Source: an uncultured Actinomycetota bacterium (GTDB lineage Bacteria; Actinomycetota; UBA4738; HRBIN12). Taken from it: a stretch of 64,000 nucleotides of DNA. A program made the position numbers and the translations under genes. The notes under the pieces were generated by a model. That model saw only the letters and a list, made by a program, of their open reading frames with translations, ran no database searches and had not been told where the DNA came from. Positions within the stretch are counted from its first letter, which is position 1. The number at the start of each line of letters is the position of its first letter. The stretch is taken from contig CAVXMB010000002.1 in NCBI GenBank assembly GCA_963762745.1, forward strand, positions 104,554 through 168,553. Reading direction: 5' to 3'. Positions 17,485 through 40,181 of the stretch are shown here, piece after piece.

Positions 17485-17497
17485 GGCATCGAACGCC

Positions 17498-18909: not shown

Positions 18910-20259
18910 GTGCGGCGAGGATCTCGGCGTGATAATCGCCGAGTGCGACAACCCCCGAGCAGGTTCACCGGTGCGGGATGGTTGCTGCTCGCCCTCGCGC
19001 TGAACCTGGGTGTCGGACTGCTCATCAAGAGCCAGCCCACGATCGACGACGGACGCCTCCGAGCACCCTGCGCCGAGGGCGACTGGACGGACGGACGACA
19101 GTTCACTCGACTCTGCTACTCCGACATCGTCCTGCTCTCTCGCACCGAGCATCTGGCGGACGGTCGTCTTCCATACCTGGACCCCTGCCCTCCCGACCCC
19201 GCCCGACCTACCGCAGAGCCCGTCTGCGACGAGTACCCGGTCCTCACCATGTACACGATGTGGCTGACCTCCCGCGCATCGACCGGAACCGGCAGCTTCC
19301 TCCTGTGGAACGCAGCGTTGCTGAGCATCGGAGCTGCCGTCGTCGCGCTGAGCCTCCACGCGCTCTCTCGCGAGCGTGCGTTCTGGTTCGCTCTGGCTCC
19401 GACCCTGCTGGTGTACGCCTTCATGAACTGGGATCTGATCGCCGTGGCGTTCGCGACCGCCGGGACGCTCGCGTTCCTCCGCGAGCGTGATCGCGTGTCC
19501 GGCACGTTGCTCGGGCTGGGTGCGGCCGCGAAGCTCTATCCGGCTCTCCTGGTCGTTGCGTTCGCGGCGGATCGGATCCGCCGGGGTGACCGGAAGGGTG
19601 CGGCGCGAGTGGTGTTCTGGGGGGGTGGCACCTGGCTCGTCCTCAACCTCCCCTTCGCACTCACCGGATACGAGGGATGGAGCCGGTTCTTCCGACTGAG
19701 CGCGAACCGGCCTCCCGACCTGGACAGTCTCTGGTTCATCGGATGCCGCTGGGTCGCCGGGGAGTTCCCGTGCCTTCACTCTCCATTCGGACTGCTGTCA
19801 CCCCTGCAGCTCTTCAGCTTCATGTCTGGAGCTGCCTTCGTGGGGACCGTCGCTCTCGTGTGGTGGCTTCGAGCACGCCGCGACCCGGCCTTCCCCGTCT
19901 GGACCGTCGGACTCCCCCTTCTCATCGTGTTCGTGCTGACGAGCAAGGTGTATTCGCCCCAGTTCAGCCTCTGGCTGCTCCCCTGGTTCGCCCTGGCCCT
20001 TCCGGGCTTGAAGCGGGTCCCGGCCCTCGGCCTCTTCGCAGCGTTCGAGGCGACGGACATCCTCGTCTTCGTCACCCGCTTCACGTGGTTCGGGATCGGC
20101 GGTCCGGATCAATGGGTATTCGAAGCTGCGGTCGTCCTACGGGCCATCGTCCTCGTGGTGTGCCTCGCTGCGTGGGTCCTGGGGCCGAGCCCCACCTTGG
20201 AAGCAGAAGAACCGGCACCGGATCCGCGCCGCCTGGACAGCGGCATCGTCAGAGCGTGA
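18910..20259 (+). CDS. GT-C type membrane glycosyltransferase (DUF2029/GT87-like); start uncertain
   Basis: Polytopic membrane protein, with the LCYSDIVLL... loop after TM1 typical of DUF2029-type mannosyltransferases. Only about 20 nt separate it from the divergent PMT start, so one of the two starts is probably internal. Confidence 0.6.
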   Translation: MRRGSRRDNRRVRQPPSRFTGAGWLLLALALNLGVGLLIKSQPTIDDGRLRAPCAEGDWTDGRQFTRLCYSDIVLLSRTEHLADGRLPYLDPCPPDPARPTAEPVCDEYPVLTMYTMWLTSRASTGTGSFLLWNAALLSIGAAVVALSLHALSRERAFWFALAPTLLVYAFMNWDLIAVAFATAGTLAFLRERDRVSGTLLGLGAAAKLYPALLVVAFAADRIRRGDRKGAARVVFWGGGTWLVLNLPFALTGYEGWSRFFRLSANRPPDLDSLWFIGCRWVAGEFPCLHSPFGLLSPLQLFSFMSGAAFVGTVALVWWLRARRDPAFPVWTVGLPLLIVFVLTSKVYSPQFSLWLLPWFALALPGLKRVPALGLFAAFEATDILVFVTRFTWFGIGGPDQWVFEAAVVLRAIVLVVCLAAWVLGPSPTLEAEEPAPDPRRLDSGIVRA

Positions 20260-20456
20260 GGACGAACCGAGGAGCTCATCCTGATGCAGTCGATAAGCTG
20301 TCCTCAACTTCCGCGATCCCTTCCATCAGGAACGAGACTCGAGTGGACCCGAAACCCGCCAGCGATGAAACACGCACGGCCATCGACTCGGTAGGTGCGC
20401 AACCTCAGTCTGACGTCGGGACCTGTTTCGGGTACGCGGTGCGTGCGCCGTTCCCC

Positions 20457-21305
20457 ATGATGGCGATGCGATCCGGCGGCGGAGTTCCACTCGATGTGCT
20501 CGAAGCGGGGGATCCGCCCGAGAACATCGGGGAGCCGCTTCTTCAGTGGGTCGAGGGTGACAGGTCGATCGTGCGGCTGTACCAGGAGGCGACCGAGTAC
20601 CTCATGTGGGTCGATGGAGACGATTGGTTCCGCATCAACCCGGATGCCCCGTCCATCACGTGCATCGGCAGCGTCGGGGGTCCCCGCCGTGAGGCGAGGA
20701 TCTTCGGTCTTCCGGCCGCCCTGTGCTTCATGGCCCGCGGCCATGTGGCCGTGCACGCGGCAGCCGTGGACGTCGACGGTTCCGCACTGCTCCTCGCCGC
20801 TCCCGGGAGGTTCGGGAAGACGACGTTGGCGGCGGCGTTCGCCGGCCTCGGGTATCGGCTTCTCGCCGAGGACACCACGTGCTATCGCCCTGCCCCCGAC
20901 CCCGCGGTGCTGCCGGGCTTGGCCATGCTGCGGATCCGTCCCGACGTGTACGAACACGTCAGTCTCCCCGGCACCACGGTGGCGGCGGTCGACCCGGAAC
21001 GCGTCTTCGTCGTCCTCGATGAGCGGGGGCGGGGGGACAGCGAACCGGTACCTCTCCGGGGCGTGGTGTTCCTCCGCGTGTGGGATCAAGACGAGATCGT
21101 GCTCGAGCGGGTCGCGGCGGATCGGGTGATCTCGGATCTCTGGACGCTGACCTTCAATCTGCCGAACGACCGCTCACGGACGGAATGCTTCCAGGCGGTC
21201 GTCGGTCTGGCGACGGCGGTGCCGATCTGGAACCTCCACCGTCGTCTGTCCTTCGAACAGCTCCCCACCGTGATCGATCGGATCGTGTCGACGTGTCTCG
21301 CGTGA
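20457..21305 (+). CDS. HPr-kinase-related serine kinase (HprK C-terminal-domain-like), lasso-peptide-associated type
   Basis: VHAAAVDVDGSALLLAAPGRFGKTTLAAAFAGLGYRLLAEDTT matches the HprK-like P-loop core. The stop overlaps the B2 gene start (TGATG at 21303-21307). The portion of ORF 19677-21305 upstream of 20457 overlaps the previous gene and is discounted. Confidence 0.75.
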   Translation: MMAMRSGGGVPLDVLEAGDPPENIGEPLLQWVEGDRSIVRLYQEATEYLMWVDGDDWFRINPDAPSITCIGSVGGPRREARIFGLPAALCFMARGHVAVHAAAVDVDGSALLLAAPGRFGKTTLAAAFAGLGYRLLAEDTTCYRPAPDPAVLPGLAMLRIRPDVYEHVSLPGTTVAAVDPERVFVVLDERGRGDSEPVPLRGVVFLRVWDQDEIVLERVAADRVISDLWTLTFNLPNDRSRTECFQAVVGLATAVPIWNLHRRLSFEQLPTVIDRIVSTCLA

Positions 21306-21715
21306 TGCGTCCGGCGCCACCTCATCTGGGGCTTCCCGCCAGTGGGCGGTTGTTCGTTCGCATCTGGATCACCTTCGTTCGAGTGCGGTGGACGACGACT
21401 CGCCATCCGCTCCCGGCTGCGGTCGCCCGCTTGGGCGTGCCCGGCCCGGCCCCCCGCTACCGCCTGGAACCCCGCAGGCTCGGCGGCATCGTCGCCCGGG
21501 TATTGAGGTTCGGTCCGTGGCGGGCGAGATGTTTGTGGACGGCTCTCGTCCTGTATGTCCTGTTGCGCGACCAGCGCGATGCTGCCGACCTGGTGATCGG
21601 CCTTCCCTTGGAACCGAAGGACACCATCGCCCACGCGTGGGTAGAGATCGACGGGAAGGACGTCGGCCCGCCACCGGGACAGGGGCGGCACGAGGAGCTC
21701 GCCAGGTACTCCTGA
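21305..21715 (+). CDS. Lasso peptide biosynthesis B2 protein (transglutaminase-like leader peptidase)
   Basis: RCLWTALVLYVLLRDQ...DLVIGL...AHAWVEIDGKDVG gives the Cys...His...Asp arrangement and the HAWVE signature of McjB-C-terminal/B2 proteins. Confidence 0.8.
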   Translation: MRPAPPHLGLPASGRLFVRIWITFVRVRWTTTRHPLPAAVARLGVPGPAPRYRLEPRRLGGIVARVLRFGPWRARCLWTALVLYVLLRDQRDAADLVIGLPLEPKDTIAHAWVEIDGKDVGPPPGQGRHEELARYS

Positions 21716-21737
21716 TCCGGATCTCAGGTTCTCCCCG

Positions 21738-23516
21738 TCACCACCTGGAGAGGAAGGCGTGAACGGATGCGAGATCCTTGGCCCATCCGTACTCCGCGAG
21801 GTCGAGGTTCTCGGCCTCAAGGCTCTCGTGGAGGAGGTCGTATCGGACACCGCTCAGCCGATGCTGCGGGTCCATGAGCCAGCGCCGAAGCTCCGGATAG
21901 TCGATACCGGCCCGCACGGAGTCGTCGAAGTACGTCTTGTCCCGCCGATCCAGGATCGCATCGGGGACTCGCCCGCGCAGCAGCCCTCGGACGAGTGTCT
22001 TCCCTCTGACGTCGGGGAACTTGACCTCCGCCGGCAGGCTCAGGAAGAACTCCCACAGGTCGACGTCTCCCCACGGACGTCTGCACGCGATGTCGCAGAG
22101 CTGCTGACAGGTGTCGTCGGCTTCCGTCGTGAGGCCGACGCCTGAGAAGGGGCTGAGCTGTACCTTCGCCCATCGATCCCGGGCCGGCACGATGCTCCTC
22201 ACCGCGGCCTCGTTCACGCGGGCGACATCGAGCCACGCTGGAACGTTCGTCCGCAACCGTGCCCACTTGTAGGCCGTGACGCGGGTAGGAACGAAAGGGT
22301 TGGCCAGGCTCTTCAGCGATGCCGTCAATGAGCCTCCCCGCGCGCGGCGATCCCCCAGCAGACGCGCGACCGCCCCCCACCGTCCGTGCCAGACGAGGTG
22401 AGGGATCAAGTACGTGGAGATGTCGAAGACGAATTCCGCCAACTCCCCGCTCAGCACGGTGCGGTAGCCGAGGCCCCGCACGTGCCGGTAATGCTCTTCG
22501 TACTGGGGCAGCGAGATCGTGGGCACGGGTCCATCCGCGAGTCGAGTCCACTCGGCGAGGCGATCCATGGGCCGGGCGTGCTGCTGGTAGAGATCAAGGG
22601 GCATCTGGAGTTGGTCCGCGACCAGGCGGGTGTACGTCGACTCGTCGACGGCCGGGTGATCGGGGTAGATGACCGATACGCCTCCCAGAGGACGGCCCTC
22701 GATCTCCAGGTGTCGAGATGCCCCGTACGCGGCGATCGCAGGGGAGTCCACGCCCCCGCTCAGCGACACGGCGTCCCGTCCGGTGAGGGTTCTCGCGACC
22801 GCCTGGGTCATCAGATGATCGAAGCGCTCCTTGATCTCCTCCGGCCCATAGCGCCCGGTTTCGAATCGATCGGTCGGATCCCAGTACCGCCTCAGCCGGG
22901 CGGCGCCCGAACGGTCCGCCACCAGGAGGGAGGCCTTCGGGAGTCGCTCTACGCCTCGGAGCGCGCTGGGGGTGTGCTCGTCGTACGTCCGGAAGTAGAT
23001 CGCCTCACAGACGTCCAGGTCCGGCTCTTCGGCGATGCCGGCGCCCGCGACGACTTGCTTCGCCTCAGAGGCGACGTAGACCGCGCGAGCGTCTCGACGG
23101 TAGAAGACAGGGCCGAACCCCAGATGATCCCGGAACGCCATGATGCGGTCCCGGTCGCTGATGACACCCGCGAAGACGCCGCGGAGCCGGGCGGGGAGAT
23201 CGAGCCCGAAGGCTCGGTATCCTGCGACCAGAACGTCGGCTACATCCCCGGACGACGATGGATGGCCCGCCTGCTCCGCCGCTCGCGCCAATCCCGCCAC
23301 GTTGTCGATGGTTCCCGCCAGTGCCACAGCGACCTCTGCATCAACGCCCAGATGAGCGTCATCGCGGCCCTCTGACGTCCCCACCGCGAGCGCGACGGCG
23401 CCATGCTGGACGAGCTTGGTCCGTCCACCTCGATGGGGCGCAGCCCGGATCATGTCCTCGACGACGGTCTCGTCGGGAACACCGGTGTGGAACAGGGCTA
23501 CGGAGATCGATCCCAT
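21738..23516 (-). CDS. Lasso peptide cyclase (asparagine synthetase B homolog)
   Basis: SLSGGVDSPAIAAY PP-loop. The N-terminal domain starts MGSIS, so the Cys nucleophile of true glutamine-dependent AsnB is absent. Convergent with B2 and immediately downstream of the small precursor ORF. Confidence 0.85.
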   Translation of the reverse strand: MGSISVALFHTGVPDETVVEDMIRAAPHRGGRTKLVQHGAVALAVGTSEGRDDAHLGVDAEVAVALAGTIDNVAGLARAAEQAGHPSSSGDVADVLVAGYRAFGLDLPARLRGVFAGVISDRDRIMAFRDHLGFGPVFYRRDARAVYVASEAKQVVAGAGIAEEPDLDVCEAIYFRTYDEHTPSALRGVERLPKASLLVADRSGAARLRRYWDPTDRFETGRYGPEEIKERFDHLMTQAVARTLTGRDAVSLSGGVDSPAIAAYGASRHLEIEGRPLGGVSVIYPDHPAVDESTYTRLVADQLQMPLDLYQQHARPMDRLAEWTRLADGPVPTISLPQYEEHYRHVRGLGYRTVLSGELAEFVFDISTYLIPHLVWHGRWGAVARLLGDRRARGGSLTASLKSLANPFVPTRVTAYKWARLRTNVPAWLDVARVNEAAVRSIVPARDRWAKVQLSPFSGVGLTTEADDTCQQLCDIACRRPWGDVDLWEFFLSLPAEVKFPDVRGKTLVRGLLRGRVPDAILDRRDKTYFDDSVRAGIDYPELRRWLMDPQHRLSGVRYDLLHESLEAENLDLAEYGWAKDLASVHAFLSRW

Positions 23517-23601
23517 GGGTGGCGTCGCAGTCTAGAAGAGCCACCTCCTGCGAAAGCGGGTTCGGCTCGGTGGCCTCCTCGCCCCCCTGGCAAGAAGGGG
23601 C

Positions 23602-23639
23602 AAGAAAAAGATCGACCGCACCTCTCGGTGCGGTCGATC
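23602..23639 (-). terminator. Intrinsic terminator/attenuator hairpin between the precursor gene and the cyclase gene
   Basis: On the minus strand there is a perfect 13-bp stem, gatcgaccgcacc-gaga-ggtgcggtcgatc, followed by tttttcttg. It starts 27 nt after the precursor stop. Confidence 0.7.
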
Positions 23640-23665
23640 GGTGGTTCGGATCGTGTTCTGAAGAG

Positions 23666-23812
23666 CTACGGAGTCGCTGCCAGCGCCGACTGCTCGCCGA
23701 AGTTATCCAGGTGGCAGCCCGTGAGGCAACCCTTCGTCTGACCGTGTGGCGTCGTGAACGTGTGGTCGGCGATCGACCCCAGGTCCATGACGACCGGCGT
23801 TTCGTACACCAT
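23666..23812 (-). CDS. Candidate lasso peptide precursor (48 aa): MVYETPVVMDLGSIADHTFTTPHGQTKGCLTGCHLDNFGEQSALAATP
   Basis: AGGAGG lies 5-6 nt upstream of the ATG at 23812. 41 of 48 codons end in G/C, as in the surrounding genes. The leader fits Y-x-x-P-x-(L/V)-x3-G-x5-T. Directly upstream of the cyclase on the same strand. Confidence 0.65.
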   Translation of the reverse strand: MVYETPVVMDLGSIADHTFTTPHGQTKGCLTGCHLDNFGEQSALAATP

Positions 23813-23990
23813 GTCGCCTCCTCTTCCCCTTGGGATCCCATTTGTCGGGGGGTCCCCCATCATAGGGACATCGCGTCTGCAATGCCCTACTACCTTTGGC
23901 GTATCTTTGCTAGTGATACACCCCTACCCAGCATCCCCCATCCTGACGGGGGGTTCCTGCTTGGCCTACTTCTTCGGCCGTATCTTTCCC

Positions 23991-25304
23991 ATGATACGCA
24001 GAGGCAAACCCCGAGGGATGGGCCGGGAGCCCACAGGTCGCTATCCTCTCCCGGTGGCGCATTGGCGCGTGCCCCCCACGATTGGTGCCCGGCTTCCTCA
24101 TGTGGAAGGGGCTCGAGCGCTCGCAGCCAGCAGCATCGTCGTTTTCCACGTGTGGAAGTACGGCTCTTCCAGCGGGCCGGCCAGCCTCGGTCCGACCGGA
24201 CGTCTTCTGCCCCACCTGGCATTGGGGGTGACGCTTTTCTTCGCACTCTCCGGTTTCCTGCTCTACCGGCCTTTCGCGGCCGCCCTGATGCGCGGGACTC
24301 CTCGTCCGGATCTGGCCGCCTACTTCCGGAACCGAGCTCTTCGGATCCTGCCCGCCTACTGGGTGATCCTCTTGGTCACCGGCGTGGTGATGGGAGCCAC
24401 GCTCGTCAGCTACGACCTCCAACGCGGATCGCTCGCCACCCGACCAGGTCTCTTGGTGCGGGATGCCCTCCTCGTGCAGAACTACGCCCCAGGAACGATC
24501 CTCACCGGGATCGGACCGGCATGGTCACTCGCCATCGAGGTGGTGTTCTATCTCGTGCTTCCGCTCTTGGGCTTGATCGCGTTCGCGCTCGCTCGACGGG
24601 CCTCGAACGACTCGCGACGTCGGAGGCTCGCATCGCTCCCACCGATCCTGGTGCTCCTGATCGGGGTCTCGGGGAAGCTGGTTGCCACGTATCTCGTACC
24701 TGGATGGGGCCCGGGATTCGGATGGGTCAACGACTGGCACTCCGTGCTCGAGCGCAGCTTCTGGGCACAGGCCGACCTGTTCGCGTACGGGATGCTCCTG
24801 GCGGTCGTGTCCATCGCGGTCGAGGACGGACGTATCCAGCTGCCGCGTGGATGGTGGCCCGTGACCGCCTCGGCGTTCGTCGGCCTCGCTGCCGCGACGG
24901 CGGTCGGCTTCGACGAGGGAGCGATCAACCAGTACGTCTACGACTCGTTGATGGCCCTCGCATGCGCCCTGTTCCTCGCTCTCGTCGTGCTCGCGGGGCG
25001 CGACGGCGAGCGGCGACCCTTCCTTCTGAGCTGGCTCGAGGCCCGGCCGATCGTCTGGGTGGGGGTGGTTTCCTACAGCCTCTTCCTTTGGCACGAGCCG
25101 ATCATCTGGTGGCTTCGGGACCGGGGCTTGCTGGTCGCGGGAAATGCCGCCGGAGACTTCCTGTTGAACCTCGCCATCGTGGGGACGGTTTCGCTGGCGC
25201 TGTCTGCTCTCACCTATCGGGTCGTGGAATTGCCCGCCCTCCGACGGAAGGCACGGACCCCGACACGAGACGAGGCGGTGGCGGTCGTCGCGGCGGCGCC
25301 CTGA
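23991..25304 (+). CDS. Acyltransferase family 3 (membrane O-acyltransferase)
   Basis: RLPHVEGARALAASSIVVFHV... N-terminus followed by about 10 hydrophobic segments, typical of the PF01757-type. The start is chosen at ATG 23991 because upstream ORF residues overlap the precursor gene. Confidence 0.8.
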   Translation: MIRRGKPRGMGREPTGRYPLPVAHWRVPPTIGARLPHVEGARALAASSIVVFHVWKYGSSSGPASLGPTGRLLPHLALGVTLFFALSGFLLYRPFAAALMRGTPRPDLAAYFRNRALRILPAYWVILLVTGVVMGATLVSYDLQRGSLATRPGLLVRDALLVQNYAPGTILTGIGPAWSLAIEVVFYLVLPLLGLIAFALARRASNDSRRRRLASLPPILVLLIGVSGKLVATYLVPGWGPGFGWVNDWHSVLERSFWAQADLFAYGMLLAVVSIAVEDGRIQLPRGWWPVTASAFVGLAAATAVGFDEGAINQYVYDSLMALACALFLALVVLAGRDGERRPFLLSWLEARPIVWVGVVSYSLFLWHEPIIWWLRDRGLLVAGNAAGDFLLNLAIVGTVSLALSALTYRVVELPALRRKARTPTRDEAVAVVAAAP

Positions 25305-25320
25305 GGCGACCGTTCGTTGG

Positions 25321-26490
25321 TCAGAAGAACCAGAGCCACCGGGTGAAGGTGATGACGCCGAGGGTGGCGAGCGGCGCGAAGACCGCCAACACGAGGTCGT
25401 GAGCGCGATCCCGCTCCTTCGTGAACGAGGCGATGAGCAGGACGATCGGGAACAACGAGAGGAGCGCACGAGGAACGCTGAAGTAGTGGGTGCTCACCAG
25501 GAGCGTGGCGAGCGTCGAACCCATGAAGGCGGCATATCCCCACAGACGCCTGGAGATGGCCCAGGCGGTGAACGCGATACCGACCGCGGCGGCAGCGATC
25601 TCCCCGGCATACGCGATCCTGAAATTCGCATCGAGTGACGGATCTCCGACGAACCGGAGCGTGGTGAGGAGCGCGGAGATCGGGCCTTTGAACTCCCGAA
25701 GCCAGCCCACGCGCTCGTCGGTGAGGAATGCGAAGGGATCGCCCCTGATGACCCAGAGGTAGGTGAGGTATGCCAGGAGCGGGAGCACCGCGAGAGACAA
25801 GGCCGCACCGGCTCTCACCAGGGATCTTCGTGAGAAGTCGCGTTGGGCGACGAACTCGACGACGAGACCGATCAGGAGGAACACTCCCGCCGGCCGGGCC
25901 GCCACGGCAACGAACGCCGCCGGGCCGACGGCGAGCCATCGACGTTGGCGAGCGTAGAAGAAGGCCGGGATGGCTCCGGCGAGGAAGAGCGGCTCACTGT
26001 ACGGTGCGATCAGGAACACCGCCGTGGGGAACAGGAGGAGGTACAGCACGGCCTTGCGACCGGCGCCCTCTCCGACCTCGGTCTCGGCGAGCTGGTACAG
26101 GAATCTGGTCGCCACCAGGGTGGCTGCCGCCGAGATCGTCAGACCCGCCGCGATCGGGGACAGGCCGATCCCGGACAACCCCCGCACCAGCACGGGCAGG
26201 AGAGGCCAGAACGCGGTGACGTAGCCGACGGTGCCGGGACCCCGGTATCCGTGCTCGGAGATCGCGAGGTAGTGAACCGCGTCCCACCGGTGCCAGATGG
26301 CAAGAGATCCCTCGCGGGGCATGTCCATCGAGGAAGCGAAGATCCATGTCGCGGCGTACGCGACGACCATGAAGACGATCCGAGTGACCACGACGAGGGT
26401 CGCCGCTTCCGCCCACGCAGGGTTCAACTCACGGAACCATCGTGCCCCGGATGCGATGGGCCGCCACGTCATGGGGGCCAAGCATCTCAT
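25321..26490 (-). CDS. PIG-V/Mannosyl_trans2-like GT-C membrane mannosyltransferase
   Basis: Polytopic membrane protein with HRWDAVHYLAISEHGY in the first loop (the WD..YL.IA..GY signature). Confidence 0.7.
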   Translation of the reverse strand: MRCLAPMTWRPIASGARWFRELNPAWAEAATLVVVTRIVFMVVAYAATWIFASSMDMPREGSLAIWHRWDAVHYLAISEHGYRGPGTVGYVTAFWPLLPVLVRGLSGIGLSPIAAGLTISAAATLVATRFLYQLAETEVGEGAGRKAVLYLLLFPTAVFLIAPYSEPLFLAGAIPAFFYARQRRWLAVGPAAFVAVAARPAGVFLLIGLVVEFVAQRDFSRRSLVRAGAALSLAVLPLLAYLTYLWVIRGDPFAFLTDERVGWLREFKGPISALLTTLRFVGDPSLDANFRIAYAGEIAAAAVGIAFTAWAISRRLWGYAAFMGSTLATLLVSTHYFSVPRALLSLFPIVLLIASFTKERDRAHDLVLAVFAPLATLGVITFTRWLWFF

Positions 26491-26574
26491 CGACCAACCG
26501 CTGCGGGGGTCGGTGCCCCAGGGAGGCGCTCTCGCCGGTCGGTATCATCGCGAGAACGTCGAGATCGGAGAACG

Positions 26575-27303
26575 ATGGTTGACACGGCGAAGCTCGGGAA
26601 GTGGATCAAGCCCCAACATCTGACCGAAGAGAACCTCGCCCGATATCGTGCTTCGTTCGCCGGCCACCCCGCTCAGCTGGTCGTGGTCGAGGACTTCTTG
26701 CTCGACGACGTCGCCGAGCGGATCAGCAGGTTCCTCGAAGGCGAGGCGCTCTTCGAGGAAGAGCACGGGCTGTACTCGATCGATGGAGCAGTGCCGCAGG
26801 CGGACTGGGAGTCCGCCGAGGACGACGACCGGCTCTTCCGTCTCTCCCGGCTGAAGGGGATCTCTCCCGAACACATGATGAGCCCGAACGCGGTCACCTA
26901 TCTCCGCCTGCGTCAAGCGTTGCAGCAGCCGGAGTTCAGGGAGCTCTTCGAAGCCCTCACCGGATTGGAGCTGGGGTCGAGCGACGACTTCGGGGTGCAC
27001 TCGATGAGCGTGGGAGATTTCCTTCGTCCGCACTCCGATGACGTTCGGGACCGCAGCATCGCCCTCGTGATGTACCTCTCGCCCGGTTGGAGCCCGTCCT
27101 TCGGTGGAGCCCTCCACATGGCCGACGAGACGGGAGGCGACACTCGGGTCGAGGCCACGTACAACAGCATCGTGGTCTTCGACGTCCAGGCGGAGAACTC
27201 TCACCTGGTCGCGCCCATCGAAGCCGCGGCCGGAGAGACCCGCAGGCTCACGATCGGAGGCTGGTACCCGAAGCCGACGGGTGCCGATAGCGCCGCGTCG
27301 TAA
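26575..27303 (+). CDS. 2OG-Fe(II) oxygenase (prolyl-4-hydroxylase-like)
   Basis: GGAG RBS at 26567-26570. FLRPHSDD (HxD) plus downstream SHLV and RLTIGGWY (distal His / Arg region). The upstream part of the 486-aa ORF is antisense shadow. Confidence 0.8.
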   Translation: MVDTAKLGKWIKPQHLTEENLARYRASFAGHPAQLVVVEDFLLDDVAERISRFLEGEALFEEEHGLYSIDGAVPQADWESAEDDDRLFRLSRLKGISPEHMMSPNAVTYLRLRQALQQPEFRELFEALTGLELGSSDDFGVHSMSVGDFLRPHSDDVRDRSIALVMYLSPGWSPSFGGALHMADETGGDTRVEATYNSIVVFDVQAENSHLVAPIEAAAGETRRLTIGGWYPKPTGADSAAS

Positions 27304-27306
27304 GGC

Positions 27307-28362
27307 ATGCCTTCCGAGGTCGGCGTCAGCGTCATCATCTCTACGCGCAACCGGGCCTCGTACCTCGAGGACTGCCTGCGGTCGCTCGCAGCGCAACTGG
27401 ACGCTCGGGTCGGACACGAGGTCGTGGTCGTGGACAACGGATCGGACGATGCCACTCCCGACCTGCTCGCTCGATGGTGTGCTGACCGCCCCGAGTTCCG
27501 CACGGTCAGGGAAGAGCGAGTGGGGCTCAGCCGAGGGAAGAACGCCGGGATCCGGTCGGCGAGGGGCTCATTGCTCCTCTTCACGGACGACGACGTCATC
27601 CTCCCGCCGGGCTGGATCCGTTCGTATGCGGAGTTCTTCGCTCGGCACTCGCCGGAAACCGTCGTCGCGGGTGGTCCGATCGTCCCGGTGCCCGAGGATC
27701 TCGGCGAGTGGCCGGCATGGCTCGAGGATGGCGCGCTCATCGATGTCGGGAGGCTGGACCACGGGGTGGAGCGTGAGTTGCAGCCTCCCGACTACGTGTT
27801 CGGCGGCAACATGGCCGTCCCCGCCGCCATCTTCTCGAGGCTGGGCTTGTGGCGCGAAGATCTCGGCAACACTCCGGAGGATCGGACCACCTTCGAAGAC
27901 ACGGAACTGCAAGACCGGCTCAGAGAGGGAGGAGGAACGGTCTGGTTCTGCCCCGAGACTCCGATCCGGCATCGCGTTCCGCGAGAACGTTCATCGCCTG
28001 CAGCGATCCTGCAGAACGCGTTCGGACGGGGTCGCAATGACTTCTGGAAGGAGGTCACCGCGGCGGATGCTGATCTCTCCTCCGCTCCGCGCGTCGGCGT
28101 TGTTCCAGGCCTGACCTCCCTCGTGGGGAACCTCGTGACCGAAGGCCTCGCGCTCGGTTGGTTCCGCCTCCGACGCCGAGCACCCGCCCTCGAGCGAGCC
28201 CGGCGAGCGGCATGGCGATCCGGCCGATCCTTCGAGATCCTGCGGCCGGGCAGGGACCGAACCCGCCTGTACGGCAGGATCGGCCGGGCCACCTTCCTGA
28301 TGCGTGGCGCGTTGAAGAGACTGGCCCCGCAGATCGGTGGAGACGACCGTCCCGGTCCCTAG
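27307..28362 (+). CDS. GT2-family glycosyltransferase
   Basis: VSVIISTRNRASYLEDCLRSLAAQ...VVVVDNGSDDATPDLL...LLLFTDDDV (GT-A fold, DxD). Confidence 0.85.
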   Translation: MPSEVGVSVIISTRNRASYLEDCLRSLAAQLDARVGHEVVVVDNGSDDATPDLLARWCADRPEFRTVREERVGLSRGKNAGIRSARGSLLLFTDDDVILPPGWIRSYAEFFARHSPETVVAGGPIVPVPEDLGEWPAWLEDGALIDVGRLDHGVERELQPPDYVFGGNMAVPAAIFSRLGLWREDLGNTPEDRTTFEDTELQDRLREGGGTVWFCPETPIRHRVPRERSSPAAILQNAFGRGRNDFWKEVTAADADLSSAPRVGVVPGLTSLVGNLVTEGLALGWFRLRRRAPALERARRAAWRSGRSFEILRPGRDRTRLYGRIGRATFLMRGALKRLAPQIGGDDRPGP

Positions 28363-29372
28363 GGATGGCGTCCCGTTCTCTTGCGGGCGCGAGCCAGTGC
28401 CCACACGGCGGGCCCCGCGCGCCACAGCACCCAGACCGGGCGATACACGTACGCCACCATCAAGCCGAGACGTCCGCGCTCGGCCAGCGGAGACCACGCT
28501 CGCATGAACGATGCCGGAGGGAAGATCTTCCGAAGCACCAGCCGCCCCTTGCCCCGCACCCCGGGACTCGAGACGAGCCAGTCGATGCCCAGAGCGAGCG
28601 CCGGAGCGCCGCCGCCCGAGCGGATCGCGATGTCCAATGGGGCGTCCGCCGGAAGCCCGAGCCGGTCAGCAAGCTCCACTCCCGACGGGGCCACGAGGCG
28701 AAGGCCCGCGGCAAGGCTGCCGAGCGCCCCCAGGCGTTCCGCGAGCCGCACCGTCTCGATCCACAGCTCAGGTGGGAGCCGGTCGATCGCGTGACCGAGG
28801 TCGTGTCGCGCTTTCGCGATGCGCGGCCCGTCTTTGGCCGTATGCAGCGCAAGCGCAAGAGCTCGAGCCGGAGGAGCGAGCACGTCGACGTCCACCCCGG
28901 CCACCGTCATCTGTTCGAGTCCTTCGGTCAGCGTTCTCCACACCGTCTCGGGAGGCACTCCGACTCCTGCAAGCGTCTGGTGCAGGTCGACGTCGACCGA
29001 ATCGCTCCGAACCCAGTTCCTCGAATAGCGGGGCCAGTCTCCTTCGATGGTCTCGAGTCCGTGTCGCTCGAATCCGAGCGCCTTCAGCACCTCCTCCGAG
29101 GCTTCCACTTCCGGATCCGGAACGAGCAGGTCGATGTCCGCATACCCGCGCATCTCGTTCTCCCGGTAGAGCCAGCGGGTGAGGGCAGGTCCCTTCAACA
29201 GAACACTTCGGACCCCGGCGCTGCGCCATGCGGTGACGATCTCAGCGGTTGCCCGATCGAGGACGAGCGTTCGCATCGCGTGTTGCATCTGGGGAGAGAT
29301 AGGAGGGTCCGCAGACTGCATGACTCCGGGGATCTTGGGATCCGGTTCGGAAGTAGGAGCCATCGAGACCAA
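28359..29372 (-). CDS. Nucleotidyltransferase family protein (PF14907 / NTP_transf_5-like)
   Basis: SAGVRSVLLKGPALTRWLYRENEMRGYADIDLLVPDPE...LKALGF pattern typical of the uncharacterised nucleotidyltransferase family seen in kinase-associated lasso clusters. The plus-strand 430-aa ORF here is Arg/Pro-rich shadow. Confidence 0.75.
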   Translation of the reverse strand: MVSMAPTSEPDPKIPGVMQSADPPISPQMQHAMRTLVLDRATAEIVTAWRSAGVRSVLLKGPALTRWLYRENEMRGYADIDLLVPDPEVEASEEVLKALGFERHGLETIEGDWPRYSRNWVRSDSVDVDLHQTLAGVGVPPETVWRTLTEGLEQMTVAGVDVDVLAPPARALALALHTAKDGPRIAKARHDLGHAIDRLPPELWIETVRLAERLGALGSLAAGLRLVAPSGVELADRLGLPADAPLDIAIRSGGGAPALALGIDWLVSSPGVRGKGRLVLRKIFPPASFMRAWSPLAERGRLGLMVAYVYRPVWVLWRAGPAVWALARARKRTGRHP

Positions 29373-29380
29373 CCTATCCT

Positions 29381-30394
29381 GTGCCCGTGCTCGAGGACCA
29401 GCATGCCCGTCTGCCGAACGGCCCTGAGACCCCTCTGTCGTCGATCGTGATCCCTTGTTACGACACGCCTGAGCAGTTCCTTCGAGAGTGCCTCGAGAGT
29501 GTCATCGCCCAGACCGAGGGCAGCTGGGAGGCGATCGTCGTCGACGACGGCTCCACGCGACTCGACGTCGATGCGCTGATCGAACGAACAGGTGACCCCA
29601 GGATCCTCGCCGTTCACCACCCCCAGAACCGGGGTGAGGCGGCGTCGAGGAACTCAGGGATCCGTGTCGCTCGCGGAGAGCTGATCGCCGCACTCGATGC
29701 CGACGATCGTTTGGCGCCCGATTTCCTCCGGGCGACTCGGGCCGTGCTCGACGCCTCCCCCGAGGTCGAGTGGGTCCTGACCGACCGGCAGTTGTTCGGC
29801 AAGGGGGTGGACATCCTTCGGTATCCCGACCCTCTCCCACTCCCTTGCCCCGTGCACTTCAACGCGCAGACCCCGGGGATGATCCGAAGGAGTCTCTGGG
29901 AAGCGATCGGCGGCTACTCGGAGGAGGAGGTGTTCCAGAGCGGAGGGGCGGACCTGGACTTCTGGATGTCCGCGGTGGAGCGAGGCGTCGTGACCGGACA
30001 CGTCACCGACCCGGTCTACCTCTGGCGGATCCATGAAGGGTCGCTCAGTCAGACCAGCTTCCGGTACAACAACCACCTCATCCATCGGGCCCTCTATCGG
30101 CGCCATCGCGGGTTGTTCCGCTCATTCGCGAAGCGGTGTCCCCGATGTCGTGGGCGACGAAGTCCGAGGCACTACGTGGGGAGCGGTTATTCGGTCGCGG
30201 CCGACACCTCGCTCCGCAGAGGAGAGCGAGGCCGAGCGGTGCATCTGGCCGTTCGAGGTCTGACGGTCGATCCGGGTCGCGGGAACCTGAGGCTTCTCGC
30301 GAGAACGCTCATCCCTTCCTCGGCGGCAGGGGCGAGCCGGATGTTCCTCGACAGACTGTCACGCTCCCCCCGCAAGGATCAGAAGGGGCGCTGA
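29381..30394 (+). CDS. GT2-family glycosyltransferase with a C-terminal CPRC-containing extension (paralog of 16501-17484)
   Basis: SSIVIPCYD...FLRECLESVIAQ...AIVVDDGSTR...LDADDRLAP. Collinear similarity to 16501-17484, including KRCPRC vs EPCPRC. Confidence 0.85.
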   Translation: MPVLEDQHARLPNGPETPLSSIVIPCYDTPEQFLRECLESVIAQTEGSWEAIVVDDGSTRLDVDALIERTGDPRILAVHHPQNRGEAASRNSGIRVARGELIAALDADDRLAPDFLRATRAVLDASPEVEWVLTDRQLFGKGVDILRYPDPLPLPCPVHFNAQTPGMIRRSLWEAIGGYSEEEVFQSGGADLDFWMSAVERGVVTGHVTDPVYLWRIHEGSLSQTSFRYNNHLIHRALYRRHRGLFRSFAKRCPRCRGRRSPRHYVGSGYSVAADTSLRRGERGRAVHLAVRGLTVDPGRGNLRLLARTLIPSSAAGASRMFLDRLSRSPRKDQKGR

Positions 30395-30403
30395 CCCGAA
30401 CCC

Positions 30404-30697
30404 TCAAGATGGGGCCGGCTCGGTGAGGATCAGGTCGCGCTCGGCGAGATCGGCCAGGAACTGCCGGATCTCCTCCTCGAAGTCGGGAGGCACATCCTGG
30501 AGCTGTGCTCTCAGCTCATGAAGGAGCACATCGACAGGCTTCTGCTCCTCCAGCAGGCTCCAGATCAAGACTCCGACTTCGTTCAGCCCGTGGTACGCGG
30601 CGGTGTCAAGGTGGAGGAGGACACCTCCTTCACCTTCCCCCATGCTCCTGGATTCGACACGGGGGTTCCTCCGGAGAAGGGTCGTCGTATCGATCAT
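30404..30697 (-). CDS. PqqD-family protein (stand-alone RiPP recognition element; candidate lasso B1)
   Basis: 97 aa. GGVLLHLDTAAYHGLNEVGVLIWSLLEEQKPVDVLLHELRAQL...EEEIRQFLADLAERDLI is a typical PqqD/RRE winged-helix pattern. GAAGGAAAGG RBS upstream of ATG 30697. Confidence 0.8.
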   Translation of the reverse strand: MIDTTTLLRRNPRVESRSMGEGEGGVLLHLDTAAYHGLNEVGVLIWSLLEEQKPVDVLLHELRAQLQDVPPDFEEEIRQFLADLAERDLILTEPAPS

Positions 30698-30782
30698 CTT
30701 GGGGCCTTTCCTTCGCTCACGATCCCTTGGACTGACGCGGACCGTAAGTGAATCACGTGGTGCCCGGACATGCCCGTCGCCA

Positions 30783-31331
30783 TCAGGGGAGCGGCTCTGC
30801 GTGACCTTGCCGACGCACCCGCTGACTTGCCTGCCAGACGAGCCAAGCAACAGCGAGCAGGACGAGGCCCGACAACAACCAGAGCGTTGCGTCCGAGCCG
30901 CCGAGGTCGAGACCTTCGCCCGGGGATGGCCGTCCGGACGACAGGACCACCGCTGCGAGGGCGCCCAGGCCGACGTTCCTGGCCAACATCAGCCGATAGT
31001 CGAAGATCCGACTCCCACCGAAGCATCCACACCCGAGCTTGTTCGTCCCGAGCACGATCCGGGTCCGGACGATCGCGACACAGAACACCGCGAGCAGTCC
31101 GATCGCCATCACGGCGCCCGATCTCTCAGCTCCCGTGATCAGAAGGCCGGCGATCCCCAACTCGATCCACGGAAGCACCAAGAAGACCGCCACTCGGACG
31201 GGACGACTCAGTCGGTATGAGACGAGATCCATCCGCCAACGTTCAGCTCGGATGACCTTCATCGATCCCGCCCATGCGAACGCCCCGGCAAGGAGGATCG
31301 ATGCGAGCGTCACCCAGCCATCTGACATCAA
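30783..31331 (-). CDS. MauE/DoxX-family redox-associated membrane protein
   Basis: Four hydrophobic segments and the conserved CGCFG motif (NKLGCGCFGGS). Confidence 0.8.
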   Translation of the reverse strand: MMSDGWVTLASILLAGAFAWAGSMKVIRAERWRMDLVSYRLSRPVRVAVFLVLPWIELGIAGLLITGAERSGAVMAIGLLAVFCVAIVRTRIVLGTNKLGCGCFGGSRIFDYRLMLARNVGLGALAAVVLSSGRPSPGEGLDLGGSDATLWLLSGLVLLAVAWLVWQASQRVRRQGHAEPLP

Positions 31332-31403: not shown

Positions 31404-33011
31404 TCAATACTTGGCGTAGTACGGATGTGTCAGATGATCCGAGTTCGTGAGAACGGAGCCGATCACGGGAGTCCCGATCCGTTCTAGGAGACGCCTGACC
31501 TCCTCGAGCGCCGATTGATCGGTCGTTCGAGCGTCCGCCACGACGAGGATCGCCTCGCTGGCGATGGCGAGCGCGATCGGATCGGATCTGCCGAGTAGCG
31601 GCGCAGAGTCGATGAGGATGAGATCCGCATGGCCTTCGAACTCGGCCAGCAACGCCGCGATCGAACCCGGGTTGAGCAGGGGGTCCTTGCTTTCAGGCGC
31701 CGGGCCTCTCCGTACCACGTGAAGGTTCTCGACGGATCCCACCCACATCGCTTCCTCGATCTTCTTCTTGCCCATGAGGACGTCCGTCAGGCCGGGGCCG
31801 GGTTCCGCGTCGAAGTACGCTTCCAACTCCGCTCTCTGGAGGTCGGCGGAGACCAGCACAACCCGCATCCCCGTCCGAGCGAGTGTCACCCCGAGATTGG
31901 CCACGGTGAGCGTCTTGCCTTCGGCTTCCATGGCGCTGGTCACCAAGATGTTCTTCGCTCCGAGCTCGGCAGCCGATTTCACGAGCCGGGTTCCGAGGAC
32001 CCGGAAGGCTTCGCTCACGGCCGAGTCGGGGTCCGTCATGGTCAGCAGCGTCGGGGAGGTCGGGATGAACAGCGGATCCCGTGGGATGACCCCCAGGGTC
32101 GGCACACCGACGCGTTCTTCCAGATCCTCTCTTCCCCGGACCCGAGCGTCGAGATGGTCCCGCAGGAACGCGATACCCACGCCGAGGGCGAGGCCGACGA
32201 ATATCGCGAAGGTCAGCGTCCTTCCATGATCGGGGCTGAACGGACCGAACGGGATCTGCGCGTCCTGGATGACCTCGCCGACGTTGATGTTCTCCGGCAG
32301 CACCAGGTCGTTGAGCCGCTCCTCGAGGAATCCTCGTTGTGAGAGCAACGAGTTGAACTGGATCTGCAGGGACGTACGGTCGGCATCCGACAGGTTCTCC
32401 TCCAGCAGCTGGTTCTGGACGTCCTGGAGCTGCAAGTCGATCTCGGCGATGCGTTCCTGGATCGGCCGGGACGCTGCCTCGAGGTCGGTCAGGACCTCGT
32501 CCCGCCGGAACTGCAGGTATGCCTCCGCGAAGGCCTGGGCCGTTCCCTGAGCCTCCTCCGGGCTTTGAGAGACGGCCCGGAACACGAGGGACTGCGTTCC
32601 TTCGACGGGGGTCACGTCGATGCTCGCCTGGATGGGACCCCCGAGACTGTCGGATGCGATCTCGGCCACGGCGGTGGAACTCCCCACGCGTTCTTCGGTC
32701 AGCATGTTGATGAATCCACCGGCGCTGGCCGGTTGCGTCGGATCGAAGTTCACGGGTCGCACCAACACCTCAGAACTCGCCTCGTAGAGCGGCGTCTGCC
32801 CGAACGAGTAGAAGAGGGCGGTGGGCACGACGACACCCAGCACTCCGAGGACCCACCACCTCCGCCGCCAGAGCGTCGTGAGATAGGTTCGGAGGTCGGG
32901 GGCGGCCTGGCCGGCCGGCGAGGGACTCCTCTTCTCGATCCGCTCCATCAAGTCGCCCACCCTGTCTCCATCCCGAAGCCCGTCGCCGTGCGGCCTACCC
33001 GCACGGCTCAT
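31404..33011 (-). CDS. Polysaccharide co-polymerase (Wzz) fused to a BY-type tyrosine autokinase; start uncertain (33011 or 32948)
   Basis: TM + chain-length-determinant region + coiled-coil + second TM, then VTSAMEAEGKTLTVANLG (Walker A), VVLVSADL, LILIDSAPLL (Walker B). The first about 60 residues of the 598-aa ORF are not protein-like. Confidence 0.85.
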   Translation of the reverse strand: MSRAGRPHGDGLRDGDRVGDLMERIEKRSPSPAGQAAPDLRTYLTTLWRRRWWVLGVLGVVVPTALFYSFGQTPLYEASSEVLVRPVNFDPTQPASAGGFINMLTEERVGSSTAVAEIASDSLGGPIQASIDVTPVEGTQSLVFRAVSQSPEEAQGTAQAFAEAYLQFRRDEVLTDLEAASRPIQERIAEIDLQLQDVQNQLLEENLSDADRTSLQIQFNSLLSQRGFLEERLNDLVLPENINVGEVIQDAQIPFGPFSPDHGRTLTFAIFVGLALGVGIAFLRDHLDARVRGREDLEERVGVPTLGVIPRDPLFIPTSPTLLTMTDPDSAVSEAFRVLGTRLVKSAAELGAKNILVTSAMEAEGKTLTVANLGVTLARTGMRVVLVSADLQRAELEAYFDAEPGPGLTDVLMGKKKIEEAMWVGSVENLHVVRRGPAPESKDPLLNPGSIAALLAEFEGHADLILIDSAPLLGRSDPIALAIASEAILVVADARTTDQSALEEVRRLLERIGTPVIGSVLTNSDHLTHPYYAKY

Positions 33012-33305
33012 CCATCCCGGCCACCCCTCCGCGACCGAGAAGCCGACGGCGCAAGCCTGAGTCCCTGCGATCTCTCTGTTGAGACCCTCGGATGAGGGAC
33101 AGAGAAACCTGATCACGGTAAGGGTACCGCTGTCCCCGGCCCGACAGCCAAAGCACCATCGGAAGAACATGTCCTTCCAAGAGCTTTTCAGCGCCCTCAC
33201 TCTCGGCTATCTGGCAGATTGGATACTGATCCCCGATATCCAACCCGGCAGCTTCGCTAGGGTGTTTGCTGCTGAAGGCCCCCATCACCGACTTCTGGAG
33301 CACGC

Positions 33306-35176: not shown

Positions 35177-35320
35177 CAGGAGACGTCAGGGCCCCAGCAT
35201 CACGATGGCCAACCTCCCCTCTCAAGTTCTCTGCCCTGCAGGTCGATACCCGAAAGCAGGTAGATAACCGGCTGTTCGGCGCTCCGGATCCGTTCGGGCG
35301 CGGAAGGGGATGAGGGCTTC

Positions 35321-39525: not shown

Positions 39526-39558
39526 CCTACCCGGCAGACCACGTCCGGCAGTCGAGGG

Positions 39559-40176: not shown

Positions 40177-40181
40177 ACCCT

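Follow-up and report, generated by a model that had tools for sequence, protein, structure and literature searches.

A set of lasso-peptide-type genes lies within a glycan-assembly locus in a 64,000-nucleotide stretch of DNA from an uncultured Actinomycetota bacterium (contig CAVXMB010000002.1 of assembly GCA_963762745.1, positions 104,554 to 168,553; the whole stretch is referred to as the window). We consider it probable that the set encodes a functional, vertically conserved, lasso-derived pathway for a peptide made on ribosomes and modified post-translationally (RiPP), that it belongs to the branch with both a kinase and a nucleotidyltransferase (NTase), and that its genes are dispersed among, and co-inherited with, genes for glycan assembly. 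Lasso peptides have a 7–9-residue ring closed on the N-terminus and hypervariable cores, and they are usually viewed as antimicrobials. The pathway is best filed as a new lasso variant rather than a proven lasso peptide. Judging from the genes present, the product is most likely an exported, leader-less peptide with one ATP-dependent macrolactam, a disulfide, and a phosphoserine (probably Ser42) bearing a sugar, possibly also with hydroxyproline-linked or tail-linked sugars. A link between the peptide and the envelope glycan is plausible but unproven.

Candidate open reading frames (ORFs) in the window were scanned against Pfam and NCBIfam. Because the window is GC-rich, third-position GC content (GC3) was used to separate real genes from shadow ORFs. 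Counterparts of the window genes in related loci were identified by searching iterated local hidden Markov models (HMMs) built from window proteins against six-frame ORFs.

Genes of the lasso-type set

All six ORFs that a sequence-only reading of the window had assigned to a lasso-type set (precursor, cyclase, B2 protease, PqqD, kinase, and NTase) are present at or near the positions proposed there and match the predicted families. The precursor gene (23666–23812, minus strand) encodes a 48-aa peptide (MVYETPVVMDLGSIADHTFTTPHGQTKGCLTGCHLDNFGEQSALAATP) laid out as MVYETPVVMDLGSIADHTF followed by TTPHGQTK, GCLTGCHLD, NFGEQS, and ALAATP. The gene is preceded by a GGAGG ribosome-binding site (RBS), and an intrinsic-terminator-like hairpin (23610–23639, minus strand; a 13-bp stem with nine GC pairs, then a T-run) separates it from the cyclase gene, a layout that would suit a precursor made in excess over the enzyme.

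The window and 82 fetched loci were scanned for a small ORF with the same leader, and 62 of these 83 sequences have one adjoining the cyclase gene. Such conservation, which the sequence-only reading had expected of a real precursor, is not chance. A profile built from 24 cyclase-adjoining peptides retrieved 641 related peptide clusters (clustered at 90% identity) from a protein collection; where the source names these peptides, the name is "hypothetical protein". Given cleavage after F19, the window leader has Y3, P6, V8, and T18 at positions −17, −14, −12, and −2. The 52 peptides of the E-x-S type from metagenome-assembled genomes (MAGs) and the window all carry Y(−17), P(−14), G(−8), S(−7), and T(−2) in the leader, with I, V, or L at −12, and D(−10), I(−6), H(−3), and F(−1) are almost constant. 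This is exactly the register published for B1 recognition and B2 cutting of lasso precursors, Y(−17)xxP(−14)xL(−12) with Thr at −2 (PMC10368454), so B2 cleavage after H-T-F is the parsimonious prediction. Positions 1–2 and 7 of the post-HTF peptide covary (QT...T vs. DN...D), which could reflect a contact, a shared modification, or merely two clades.

The putative macrolactam cyclase (C; 21738–23516, minus strand) is an Asn-synthetase-like, ATP-dependent amide-forming enzyme with PF00733 and GATase_7 matches. It begins MGSIS and therefore lacks the Cys2 glutaminase nucleophile, and the PP-loop SLSGGVDS is kept. These features agree with its earlier description as a cyclase without the GATase Cys, although the protein scores below the NCBIfam cutoffs for both AsnB and lasso cyclases, including NF033561 (62 bits, cutoff 300). 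At least 985 homologs were found at an E-value of ≤1e-10. A sequence search of the PDB returned only AsnB and a hydroxyamidotransferase.

Both recognition and cleavage functions are encoded. The B2 protein (21305–21715, plus strand) is a lasso-type cysteine protease with a transglutaminase-like core (PF13471, 62 bits, cutoff 26; NF033537, 48.9 bits, cutoff 33). Its catalytic Cys is present in 66 of 66 family members and the His of AHAWVE in 64 of 66. The only PDB sequence matches for B2 were polyubiquitin repeats, which were rejected as spurious. B1 is a stand-alone RiPP recognition element of the PqqD type (30404–30697, minus strand; PF05402, 50 bits, cutoff 23.4). It also weakly matches the ScmD, lasso PqqD, and HPr-rel-A PqqD models and is below the equivalog cutoffs of TIGR04353 and TIGR04248 (21.9 vs. 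35 and 41.6 vs. 100 bits). Failure of these two ORFs to match PF13471 and PF05402 had been set beforehand as a refuting test; both match above threshold.

The kinase gene abuts the B2 gene and encodes an HprK/ScmC-like P-loop serine kinase (20343–21305, plus strand) with a partial match to TIGR04352 HprK_rel_A over the P-loop (44 bits, E 1.5e-11). The HprK-like kinase proposed in the sequence-only reading is thus real, but its start is probably the GTG at 20343, since a start at 20457 would exclude a conserved GxCxG[YF] motif located upstream. Walker A GKT and a His/Asp pair are invariant in 69 homologs, and homologs carry the precomputed domain PF27840 ScmC. The kinase had no Pfam match in the Pfam copy scanned, even from the longer start, and neither it nor the NTase had a match when the PDB was searched by sequence. 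An AlphaFold 2 model of the kinase (pLDDT 91.7) has PEP (phosphoenolpyruvate) carboxykinase, a PEPCK-like P-loop fold, as its best solved folds. The C-terminal catalytic domain of HprK belongs to the same P-loop fold superfamily as PEP carboxykinase.

The NTase (28359–29372, minus strand) belongs to PF14907, the family of PsmN (NTP_transf_5, 92.5 bits, cutoff 31.2). A DxD motif (D122xD124) and His/His/Asp residues are invariant in 52 homologs; in PsmN, D134 and D136 are essential (PMC6993621). The kinase and NTase together match the tailoring pair of paeninodin and pseudomycoidin, as had been suggested (PMC8498205, PMC6993621). The NTP_transf_5 protein of loci L003 and L004 (7619–9646) has 675 aa, twice the usual length, and is presumably a fusion.

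An ABC-2-type exporter, which was missing from the earlier list of RiPP genes, is part of the set. The ATPase (33306–34325, plus strand; PF00005, TIGR01188 drrA-type) has orthologs of 50–58% identity beside most family clusters. The permease (34322–35176, plus strand; PF01061, 55 bits; GC3 0.84) has five transmembrane (TM)-like segments, and its gene has an ATGA overlap with that of the ATPase. ORF 34417–35313 (plus strand) was rejected as the permease: it has a GC3 of 0.48, is without TM segments, and is a shadow of the frame at 34322–35176. It had seemed conserved in 46 loci because it overlaps the real ABC-2 permease frame, and its "homologs" are shadows too.

Next to PqqD lies a MauE/DoxX-like membrane protein (30783–31331, minus strand; PF07291, 62 bits; four TM-like segments). 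MauE occurs only with two-Cys precursors of the GCxxxCH type, namely in the window, L001, L006, and L084 (fused to AhpC/TSA in L084), and is a candidate disulfide-forming helper.

The set is dispersed in the window. Kinase-B2 and cyclase-precursor form two convergent pairs, and PqqD lies ~6.6 kb away; both the convergent layout and the distance (given as about 7 kb) had been described correctly. The intervening acyltransferase, PIG-V-like GT-C glycosyltransferase, 2-oxoglutarate (2OG) oxygenase, GT2 glycosyltransferase, NTase, and second GT2 are also as listed in that reading, and the true frame of the 2OG oxygenase is 26596–27303 on the plus strand.

Recurrence of the set and its glycan genes across genomes

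The lasso-type set recurs in 81 non-redundant loci; 78 loci came from a scan of species-representative genomes, and more came from metagenomic contigs. Carriers are mostly uncultured and comprise Actinomycetota (Gaiellales, Thermoleophilia, Acidimicrobiia, and others), Chloroflexota, Gemmatimonadota, Vicinamibacterales (Acidobacteriota), and one Steroidobacteraceae MAG. The cultured carriers are Phytoactinopolyspora alkaliphila (L055) and P. halotolerans (L059). An Actinomycetota MAG (L006) is 95% identical to the window and syntenic with it.

Co-occurrence was counted in 43 non-redundant loci, termed complete when the cyclase gene is flanked by 8 kb or more in each direction. By these raw counts, the kinase and B2 are each present in 98% of complete loci, PqqD in 95%, the ABC ATPase in 93%, the NTase in 86%, and the ABC permease in 79%. 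The core module is therefore the precursor, C, B1, B2, the kinase, the NTase, and the ABC-2 exporter. Most genomes have it in compact form (e.g., L002, L009, and L010), unlike the window with its exceptional, dispersed layout.

Genes for glycan assembly and glycosylation are also frequent in complete loci: GT2 in 49%, GT4 in 42%, a P4H-like 2OG oxygenase in 35%, a priming transferase in 33%, a GT-C glycosyltransferase similar to protein O-mannosyltransferases (PMT) in 28%, Wzz/BY-kinase in 26%, and Wzy_C in 19%. At least one such gene is present in 36 of the 43, and a hallmark of polysaccharide assembly (Wzy, Wzz-BY-kinase, a priming glycosyltransferase, or WecG) in 22 of the 43. The link to glycan genes is a trait of the family, not an accident of the window genome. 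The gene set is a member of a large, usually compact family in which several of the glycan genes are recurrent accessories.

The interleaving of RiPP and glycan genes, which the sequence-only reading had pointed out, is conserved in a distant relative. L084 is a forest-soil contig whose cyclase has 53% identity to that of the window and whose precursor is of the same GCxxxCH type. Its gene order is AcylT3 (an Acyl_transf_3 membrane acyltransferase), 2OG oxygenase, GT2, PMT, GT2, Wzz-BY-kinase, NTase, precursor, cyclase, ABC exporter, kinase, B2, and PqqD, followed by Wzz, MauE::AhpC/TSA, a methyltransferase, a deacetylase, and GT4. Identities to the window are 54% for the 2OG oxygenase, 53% for AcylT3, 49% for GT2a, 45% for PMT, and 44% for Wzz-BY-kinase, and, among core proteins, 53% for the cyclase, 52% for B2, 55% for PqqD, and 45% for the kinase. 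Accessory and core proteins are thus equally diverged, the pattern predicted by co-inheritance as one unit. By these comparisons of predicted proteins, the 2OG oxygenase, GT2a, AcylT3, PMT, and Wzz-BY-kinase are recurrent accessories that co-diverge with the RiPP core and not bystanders.

The accessories are distributed as follows. AcylT3 (24018–25304, plus strand; PF01757, 104 bits) has an uncertain start (at its longest, the ORF would begin at 23754 and overlap with the precursor gene); its orthologs in L084, L065, L074, and L024 have 47–53% identity. The prolyl-hydroxylase-like 2OG-Fe(II) oxygenase (26596–27303, plus strand; Ofd1_CTDD and 2OG-FeII_Oxy_3/4) has orthologs in 7 of the 11 loci compared, with 84% identity in the close relative L001 and 50–54% in the other six. 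A reverse-strand ORF at 26545–27417 was discarded as the oxygenase: it is Arg-rich, has no Pfam match, and is an antisense shadow of 26596–27303. The partner of the oxygenase, GT2a (27307–28362, plus strand; PF00535, 90.6 bits), has orthologs of 39–49% identity next to or near the 2OG oxygenase or the NTase in L084, L083, L003, L065, L074, and L024. In the loci mapped, the oxygenase is usually adjacent to, or one gene from, a GT2, and the pairing recurs in several phyla. Among complete loci with a precursor, all those with the oxygenase encode a peptide with Pro at position 3 (11/11 vs. 10/27; Fisher p = 3e-4, without phylogeny correction). PMT (17498–18889, minus strand; PF02366, PF16192) has orthologs of 44–45% identity in L084 and L033, and Wzz-BY-kinase, a polysaccharide co-polymerase tyrosine autokinase (31404–33200, minus strand; PF02706, AAA_31, TIGR01007), has orthologs of 41–44% identity in L084 and L085.

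Three other glycosyltransferases are more restricted. The PIG-V-like GT-C (25321–26490, minus strand; PF04188, 31 bits) is limited to close relatives of the window and L074, the GT87-family GT-C (18910–20259, plus strand; PF09594, 35 bits) is found only in close relatives, and GT2b (29381–30394, plus strand; PF00535, 95.5 bits) had no clear ortholog in the distant loci compared. Lacking distant-locus orthologs, these three may belong to the polysaccharide pathway proper.

Core peptide, ring chemistry, and competing explanations

The core peptide is conserved across phyla. A typical family peptide reads HTF/QTPGKGTK/SSDTTFETD/KFGE-F-S-HPAAS, and the window peptide reads HTF/TTPHGQTK/GCLTGCHLD/NFGE-Q-S-ALAATP. 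A conserved Lys is at core position 8 in 110 of the 120 best-scoring database peptides. An invariant Glu is preceded, at a distance of four residues (five in the DPMFGE variant), by a conserved acid; of 52 MAG peptides, 50 have Asp there and two have Glu. An invariant Ser lies two residues after the invariant Glu (E+2). RiPP cores do not usually show such conservation, here of Lys, Asp, Glu, and Ser as read from the aligned peptides. Lineages differ in how far the Lys lies from the Y/P/L motif, its distance from the N-terminus of the post-HTF peptide being 7–17. Family peptides have zero or two Cys, and the Cys count after HTF is even in 177 of 178. One of the two Cys precedes the Lys in 11 peptides (Acidimicrobiia, Phytoactinopolyspora, and other lineages). 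The even parity and the Cys before the Lys suggest that the whole post-HTF segment is retained in the mature molecule.

Several results weigh against a lasso-derived pathway of the kinase-plus-NTase branch. The window core TTPHGQTKG..., counted from the T18-F19 junction, has no Asp or Glu at positions 7–9, and only 48 of the 120 database peptides have one there (72 do not). The lasso-leader model NF033521 aligns below threshold to the window precursor (13.7 bits, cutoff 19); across the seven peptides tested, it gave 11.7–16.5 bits in six and no match in the seventh. The cyclase scores 115 bits against the lasso-cyclase model NF033535 (cutoff 525), slightly less than against the generic AsnB model (134 bits, cutoff 267). 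The kinase is below the curated HprK-related equivalogs (TIGR04352, 44 vs. 200 bits; TIGR04249, 24 vs. 125 bits), and HprK itself was not among the top 50 PDB fold matches of the kinase model. The window peptide ends in ...AATP and so is without the C-terminal Ser used by PadeK and PsmK. The co-occurrence counts carry no correction for phylogeny or background frequency.

Since there is no acid at 7–9 and Lys, Asp, Glu, and Ser are conserved instead, a canonical lasso ring is not demonstrated. The claim that all core lasso functions are present was therefore overstated, although the B1/B2/C/precursor set is real and its catalytic residues are intact. On the basis of the conserved residues, Asp36 or Glu40 could be joined either to the Lys27 side chain or to the N-terminus (the latter giving a ring of 17 or 21 residues), or G28 could be joined to D36 after a second cut. 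If a second cut after Lys27 is assumed, it would give a canonical-looking nine-residue G28-D36 ring with T26 at −2. Three further arrangements were rejected. An eight-residue ring on the invariant Glu with Thr at −2 would have a β-branched residue at −2 in only ~70% of peptides and tails down to five residues. Asp7 as acceptor (DNPGKGD type) was dropped because position 7 alternates freely between D, T, N, and G and is therefore not under acceptor constraint. A transglutaminase-type crosslink between Gln1 and Lys8 was set aside, with Gln at position 1 in only a third of peptides.

Some loci encode other cores. L016 (12109–12380, minus strand) has two tandem precursors in which the family leader is followed directly after HTF by a canonical-looking lasso core (GKPGHRYDHGVFPASVP; G1...D8). 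In a neighbor-joining tree of cyclases, L016 is nested inside the family and is not an outgroup; it is therefore unusable to polarize the change in the core, and the enzyme clade may still make ordinary rings. L016 could serve as a natural control for ring chemistry. P. alkaliphila (L055, 9.7–18.5 kb) has two cyclase genes and two precursors ~6.5 kb apart, one of the family type (SRCNP...ECS...) and one with a canonical-looking core (AQGGRGDGD...) beside its own cyclase, B2, and kinase. The L085 precursor (ALAGKPVTIQLDDG...) has no E-x-S motif.

A pathway can be outlined in which only the first step is read directly from sequence. The precursor would be made in excess from its own RBS, with the hairpin limiting read-through into the cyclase gene. 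Following the canonical register, PqqD would bind Y3, P6, and V8 of the leader, and B2 would cut after T18-F19. The Cys-less Asn-synthetase homolog may then adenylate Asp36 or Glu40 and close the macrolactam with the Lys27 side chain, or with the new N-terminus in a very large ring; alternatively, a second cut after Lys27 would lead to the nine-residue Gly28-Asp36 ring. By analogy with PsmK and PsmN, the HprK-like kinase would phosphorylate a serine, most likely Ser42, and the PF14907 enzyme would add a sugar or nucleotide on the phosphate. The 2OG oxygenase/GT2 pair and the acyltransferase may add decorations, and the ABC-2 transporter would export the peptide. Outside the cell, a Cys29-Cys33 disulfide could form with the help of MauE, and a GT-C may glycosylate the Ala/Ser/Thr/Pro-rich tail.

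A canonical lasso peptide, which we regard as unlikely, would have a 27-residue leader, a cut after T26-K27, a nine-residue Gly28-Asp36 ring, and a 12-residue tail (GCLTGCHLD-NFGEQSALAATP), with the glycan genes mere neighbors in a variable island. The window does have T at −2, G at +1, and D at +9 relative to that junction, and the layout resembles paeninodin (A1-D9 ring, ~14-residue tail). Across the family, the residue after the Lys is small (S in 103 and G in 46 of 171), and it lies 8 or 9 residues from the conserved Asp in 39 of 52 MAG and 115 of 120 database peptides. The GC content is also lower at 1–38 kb than elsewhere in the window. However, the residue before the Lys is Thr in only 66 of 171 peptides (Asp in 55), whereas HTF is invariant, and the cut would place the Y/P/L motif at −25/−22/−20, and as far as ~−37 in other lineages, versus the fixed −17/−14/−12 (PMC10368454). 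It would also separate the two Cys in the 11 peptides with one before the Lys, the clusters have no second conserved protease, and the accessory glycan genes co-diverge with the core. Should the pathway make a canonical G28-D36 lasso after all, what is left of the finding is a new subfamily with heavy tailoring.

The RiPP set and the glycan locus could instead be functionally independent, co-located accessory genes of one flexible region. Many family clusters are indeed self-sufficient, compact units with a transporter as the sole addition (L009, L012, and L013), PIG-V, GT87, and GT2b have no orthologs in distant loci, and the GC dip spans 1–38 kb. We judge this quite unlikely given that AcylT3, the 2OG oxygenase, GT2a, PMT, Wzz-BY-kinase, and MauE are interleaved with the core in L084 at ~50% identity, that the 2OG-GT2 pairing recurs in several phyla, and that the oxygenase is confined to peptides with Pro at position 3 in the uncorrected comparison above. 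A stronger coupling of the two systems appears very unlikely: a macrolactam from the Lys side chain to Asp or Glu with two free tails, the invariant Ser phosphorylated and then sugar-phosphorylated, and the peptide acting as a non-antibiotic acceptor or primer for the Wzy/Wzz/GT-C glycan, that is, a RiPP-anchored envelope polysaccharide. Most improbable of all is that the Asn-synthetase homolog, kinase, and NTase modify polysaccharide (amidation or phosphorylation of sugars) like amidotransferases associated with exopolysaccharide, with the small ORF, PqqD, and B2 irrelevant or regulatory. The constant proximity of glycan genes and the weak similarity of the cyclase homolog to AsnB and to the XrtA/PEP-CTERM amidotransferase TIGR03108 (88 bits) would fit, but that score is far under the cutoff of 817, the enzyme has no Cys2 nucleophile, and B2, PqqD, and a conserved precursor accompany it in 95–98% of complete loci, including the compact and glycan-poor L002 and L009.

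The probable lasso-derived pathway resembles several known systems. In paeninodin biosynthesis, PadeK phosphorylates the C-terminal Ser, and in pseudomycoidin biosynthesis, PsmK is joined by PsmN, an enzyme of PF14907 that attaches hexoses to the phosphate (PMC8498205, PMC6993621, PMC9266682). The clusters for these peptides, from Firmicutes and some Proteobacteria, share with the family a split B1/B2, an Asn-synthetase-like C, an HprK-like kinase beside B2, a PF14907 NTase, a transporter, and a YxxPxL...T(−2) leader. Many family peptides also end in Ser (29 of 52, with a further [ST]P ending in 10 of 52), while the E+2 Ser is invariant. The window peptide, however, ends in Thr-Pro. It also differs from those systems in having no acceptor at 7–9 after the canonical junction. 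Unlike them, the family has a conserved Lys/Asp/Glu/Ser core instead of a hypervariable one, uses a two-gene ABC-2 exporter, has hosts in Actinomycetota, Chloroflexota, and Gemmatimonadota, carries interleaved Wzy/Wzz/GT-C genes, and has a kinase and a cyclase only remotely related to the curated models. In Bradymonas sediminis, BsfK phosphorylates an internal Ser of the precursor with the help of B1 (PMC10368454), so HprK-like kinases need not target the C-terminus; the Bsf system differs in its canonical Gly1-Asp8 ring, the Ile at −2 of BsfA, a mature product that was never observed, and the absence of a glycan context.

Glycosylated lasso peptides are known (davasins and IgtG; PMC11912497). 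Like the hexosyl-phosphate of pseudomycoidin (PMC6993621), they have a sugar on Ser or phospho-Ser of a lasso-type peptide, which for the window set is predicted from genes. Davasins and pseudomycoidin each use a single dedicated glycosyltransferase or NTase, whereas the window has GT2s, GT-Cs, a P4H-like oxygenase, an acyltransferase, and genes for polysaccharide polymerization and export. Among disulfide lasso peptides (classes I, III, and IV), the nearest likeness is in several family lineages whose two Cys are split between the putative ring segment and the tail; unlike these classes, the window has both Cys four apart (CLTGC), and its candidate oxidant is of the MauE type rather than a DsbA/DoxX pair. 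The SynChlorMet (ScmC/ScmD) and HPr-rel-A systems contain the best curated HMM relatives of the kinase (TIGR04352 and TIGR04249) and are among the best for PqqD (TIGR04248 and TIGR04353), but scores are far under the cutoffs, these systems are not defined by B2 plus an Asn-synthetase homolog, and the window has no radical-SAM partner. In silico work has pointed to lasso clusters of rumen Butyrivibrio that contain an NTase, HPr kinase, GT2, and EpsH (PMC7533575).

Our literature search, which covered a limited library and is weak evidence, extended to lasso peptides with exopolysaccharide, HprK-related kinases with exosortase, and non-canonical Lys macrolactams and returned no description of the family, its conserved core, or a lasso-Wzy/Wzz association. 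Genome-mining data sets may already contain these clusters unremarked. The family, with at least 641 peptide clusters and 81 loci in several phyla of soil bacteria, combines the full lasso recognition and cleavage apparatus with a core that has no canonical acceptor. If its ring chemistry is non-canonical, the known abilities of lasso cyclases would be extended, and if the peptide is coupled to the glycan, lasso-type RiPPs would gain a structural or envelope function. The two cultured Phytoactinopolyspora carriers make the question experimentally accessible.

Glycan locus and genomic setting of the window

The RiPP and glycan genes form an island at 1–38 kb of the window with a GC content of 63–67%, lower than the remainder. 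The locus had been described as Wzx/Wzy-type. The priming transferase, Wzy-type polymerase, and Wzz/BY-kinase of such a locus are all present, but no Wzx (MOP-family) flippase was matched by Pfam HMMs among the window ORFs scanned. A polytopic membrane ORF (4915–6450, minus strand) has ~8 TM-like segments and no family match. The priming phosphoglycosyl transferase (Bac_transf) is encoded at 11887–13377 (minus strand; PF02397, 224 bits) and WecG/TagA at 11068–11883, and the locus has several further GT4 and GT2 genes. The Wzy_C-domain protein (14742–16334, minus strand; PF04932, 60 bits; 11 TM-like segments) belongs to the family of polymerases, O-antigen ligases, and O-oligosaccharyltransferases, and its match to TfpM is very weak (E 0.008, 15 bits, cutoff 600). 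O-Oligosaccharyltransferases of the Wzy_C family (PglL, PilO/TfpO, and TfpM) use acceptor sites like Ala/Ser/Thr/Pro-rich tails, often ending in Ser. Family tails are likewise Ala/Ser/Thr/Pro-rich, but the Wzy_C protein may simply be a polymerase.

A GGDEF diguanylate cyclase (78–647) and two paralogous NosD/β-helix proteins (1404–2540 and 2902–4056) lie at the left edge of the glycan locus. In L085, β-helix proteins likewise flank a Wzy gene beside the RiPP set, and a second Asn-synthetase paralog and a polysaccharide-deacetylase::sulfotransferase fusion are encoded beside the core set (14027–17820). A 744-aa protein in the glycan locus of the window (8785–11019, minus strand) has weak matches to APH-type phosphotransferase and AAA_16.

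Two ORFs between the ABC exporter and asd (35822–37939, minus strand, and 35321–35746, plus strand) have good GC3 and no Pfam family. The 705-aa protein encoded by the former has a single N-terminal TM-like segment and may be secreted or anchored. The housekeeping flank also encodes an S9/DPP-IV-family prolyl peptidase (41455–43566, minus strand), which is not conserved near other family clusters and is therefore probably unrelated to peptide processing. The border of the island is formed by the housekeeping genes asd, ask (aspartokinase), and dnaX (38482–47731; GC content 68–71%). The distantly related clusters L083 (asd, ask, and recR at 16.7–20.4 kb) and L003 (thymidylate kinase and DNA polymerase III delta' at 19.6–21.8 kb) have the same housekeeping neighborhood, which hints at a long-conserved chromosomal position.

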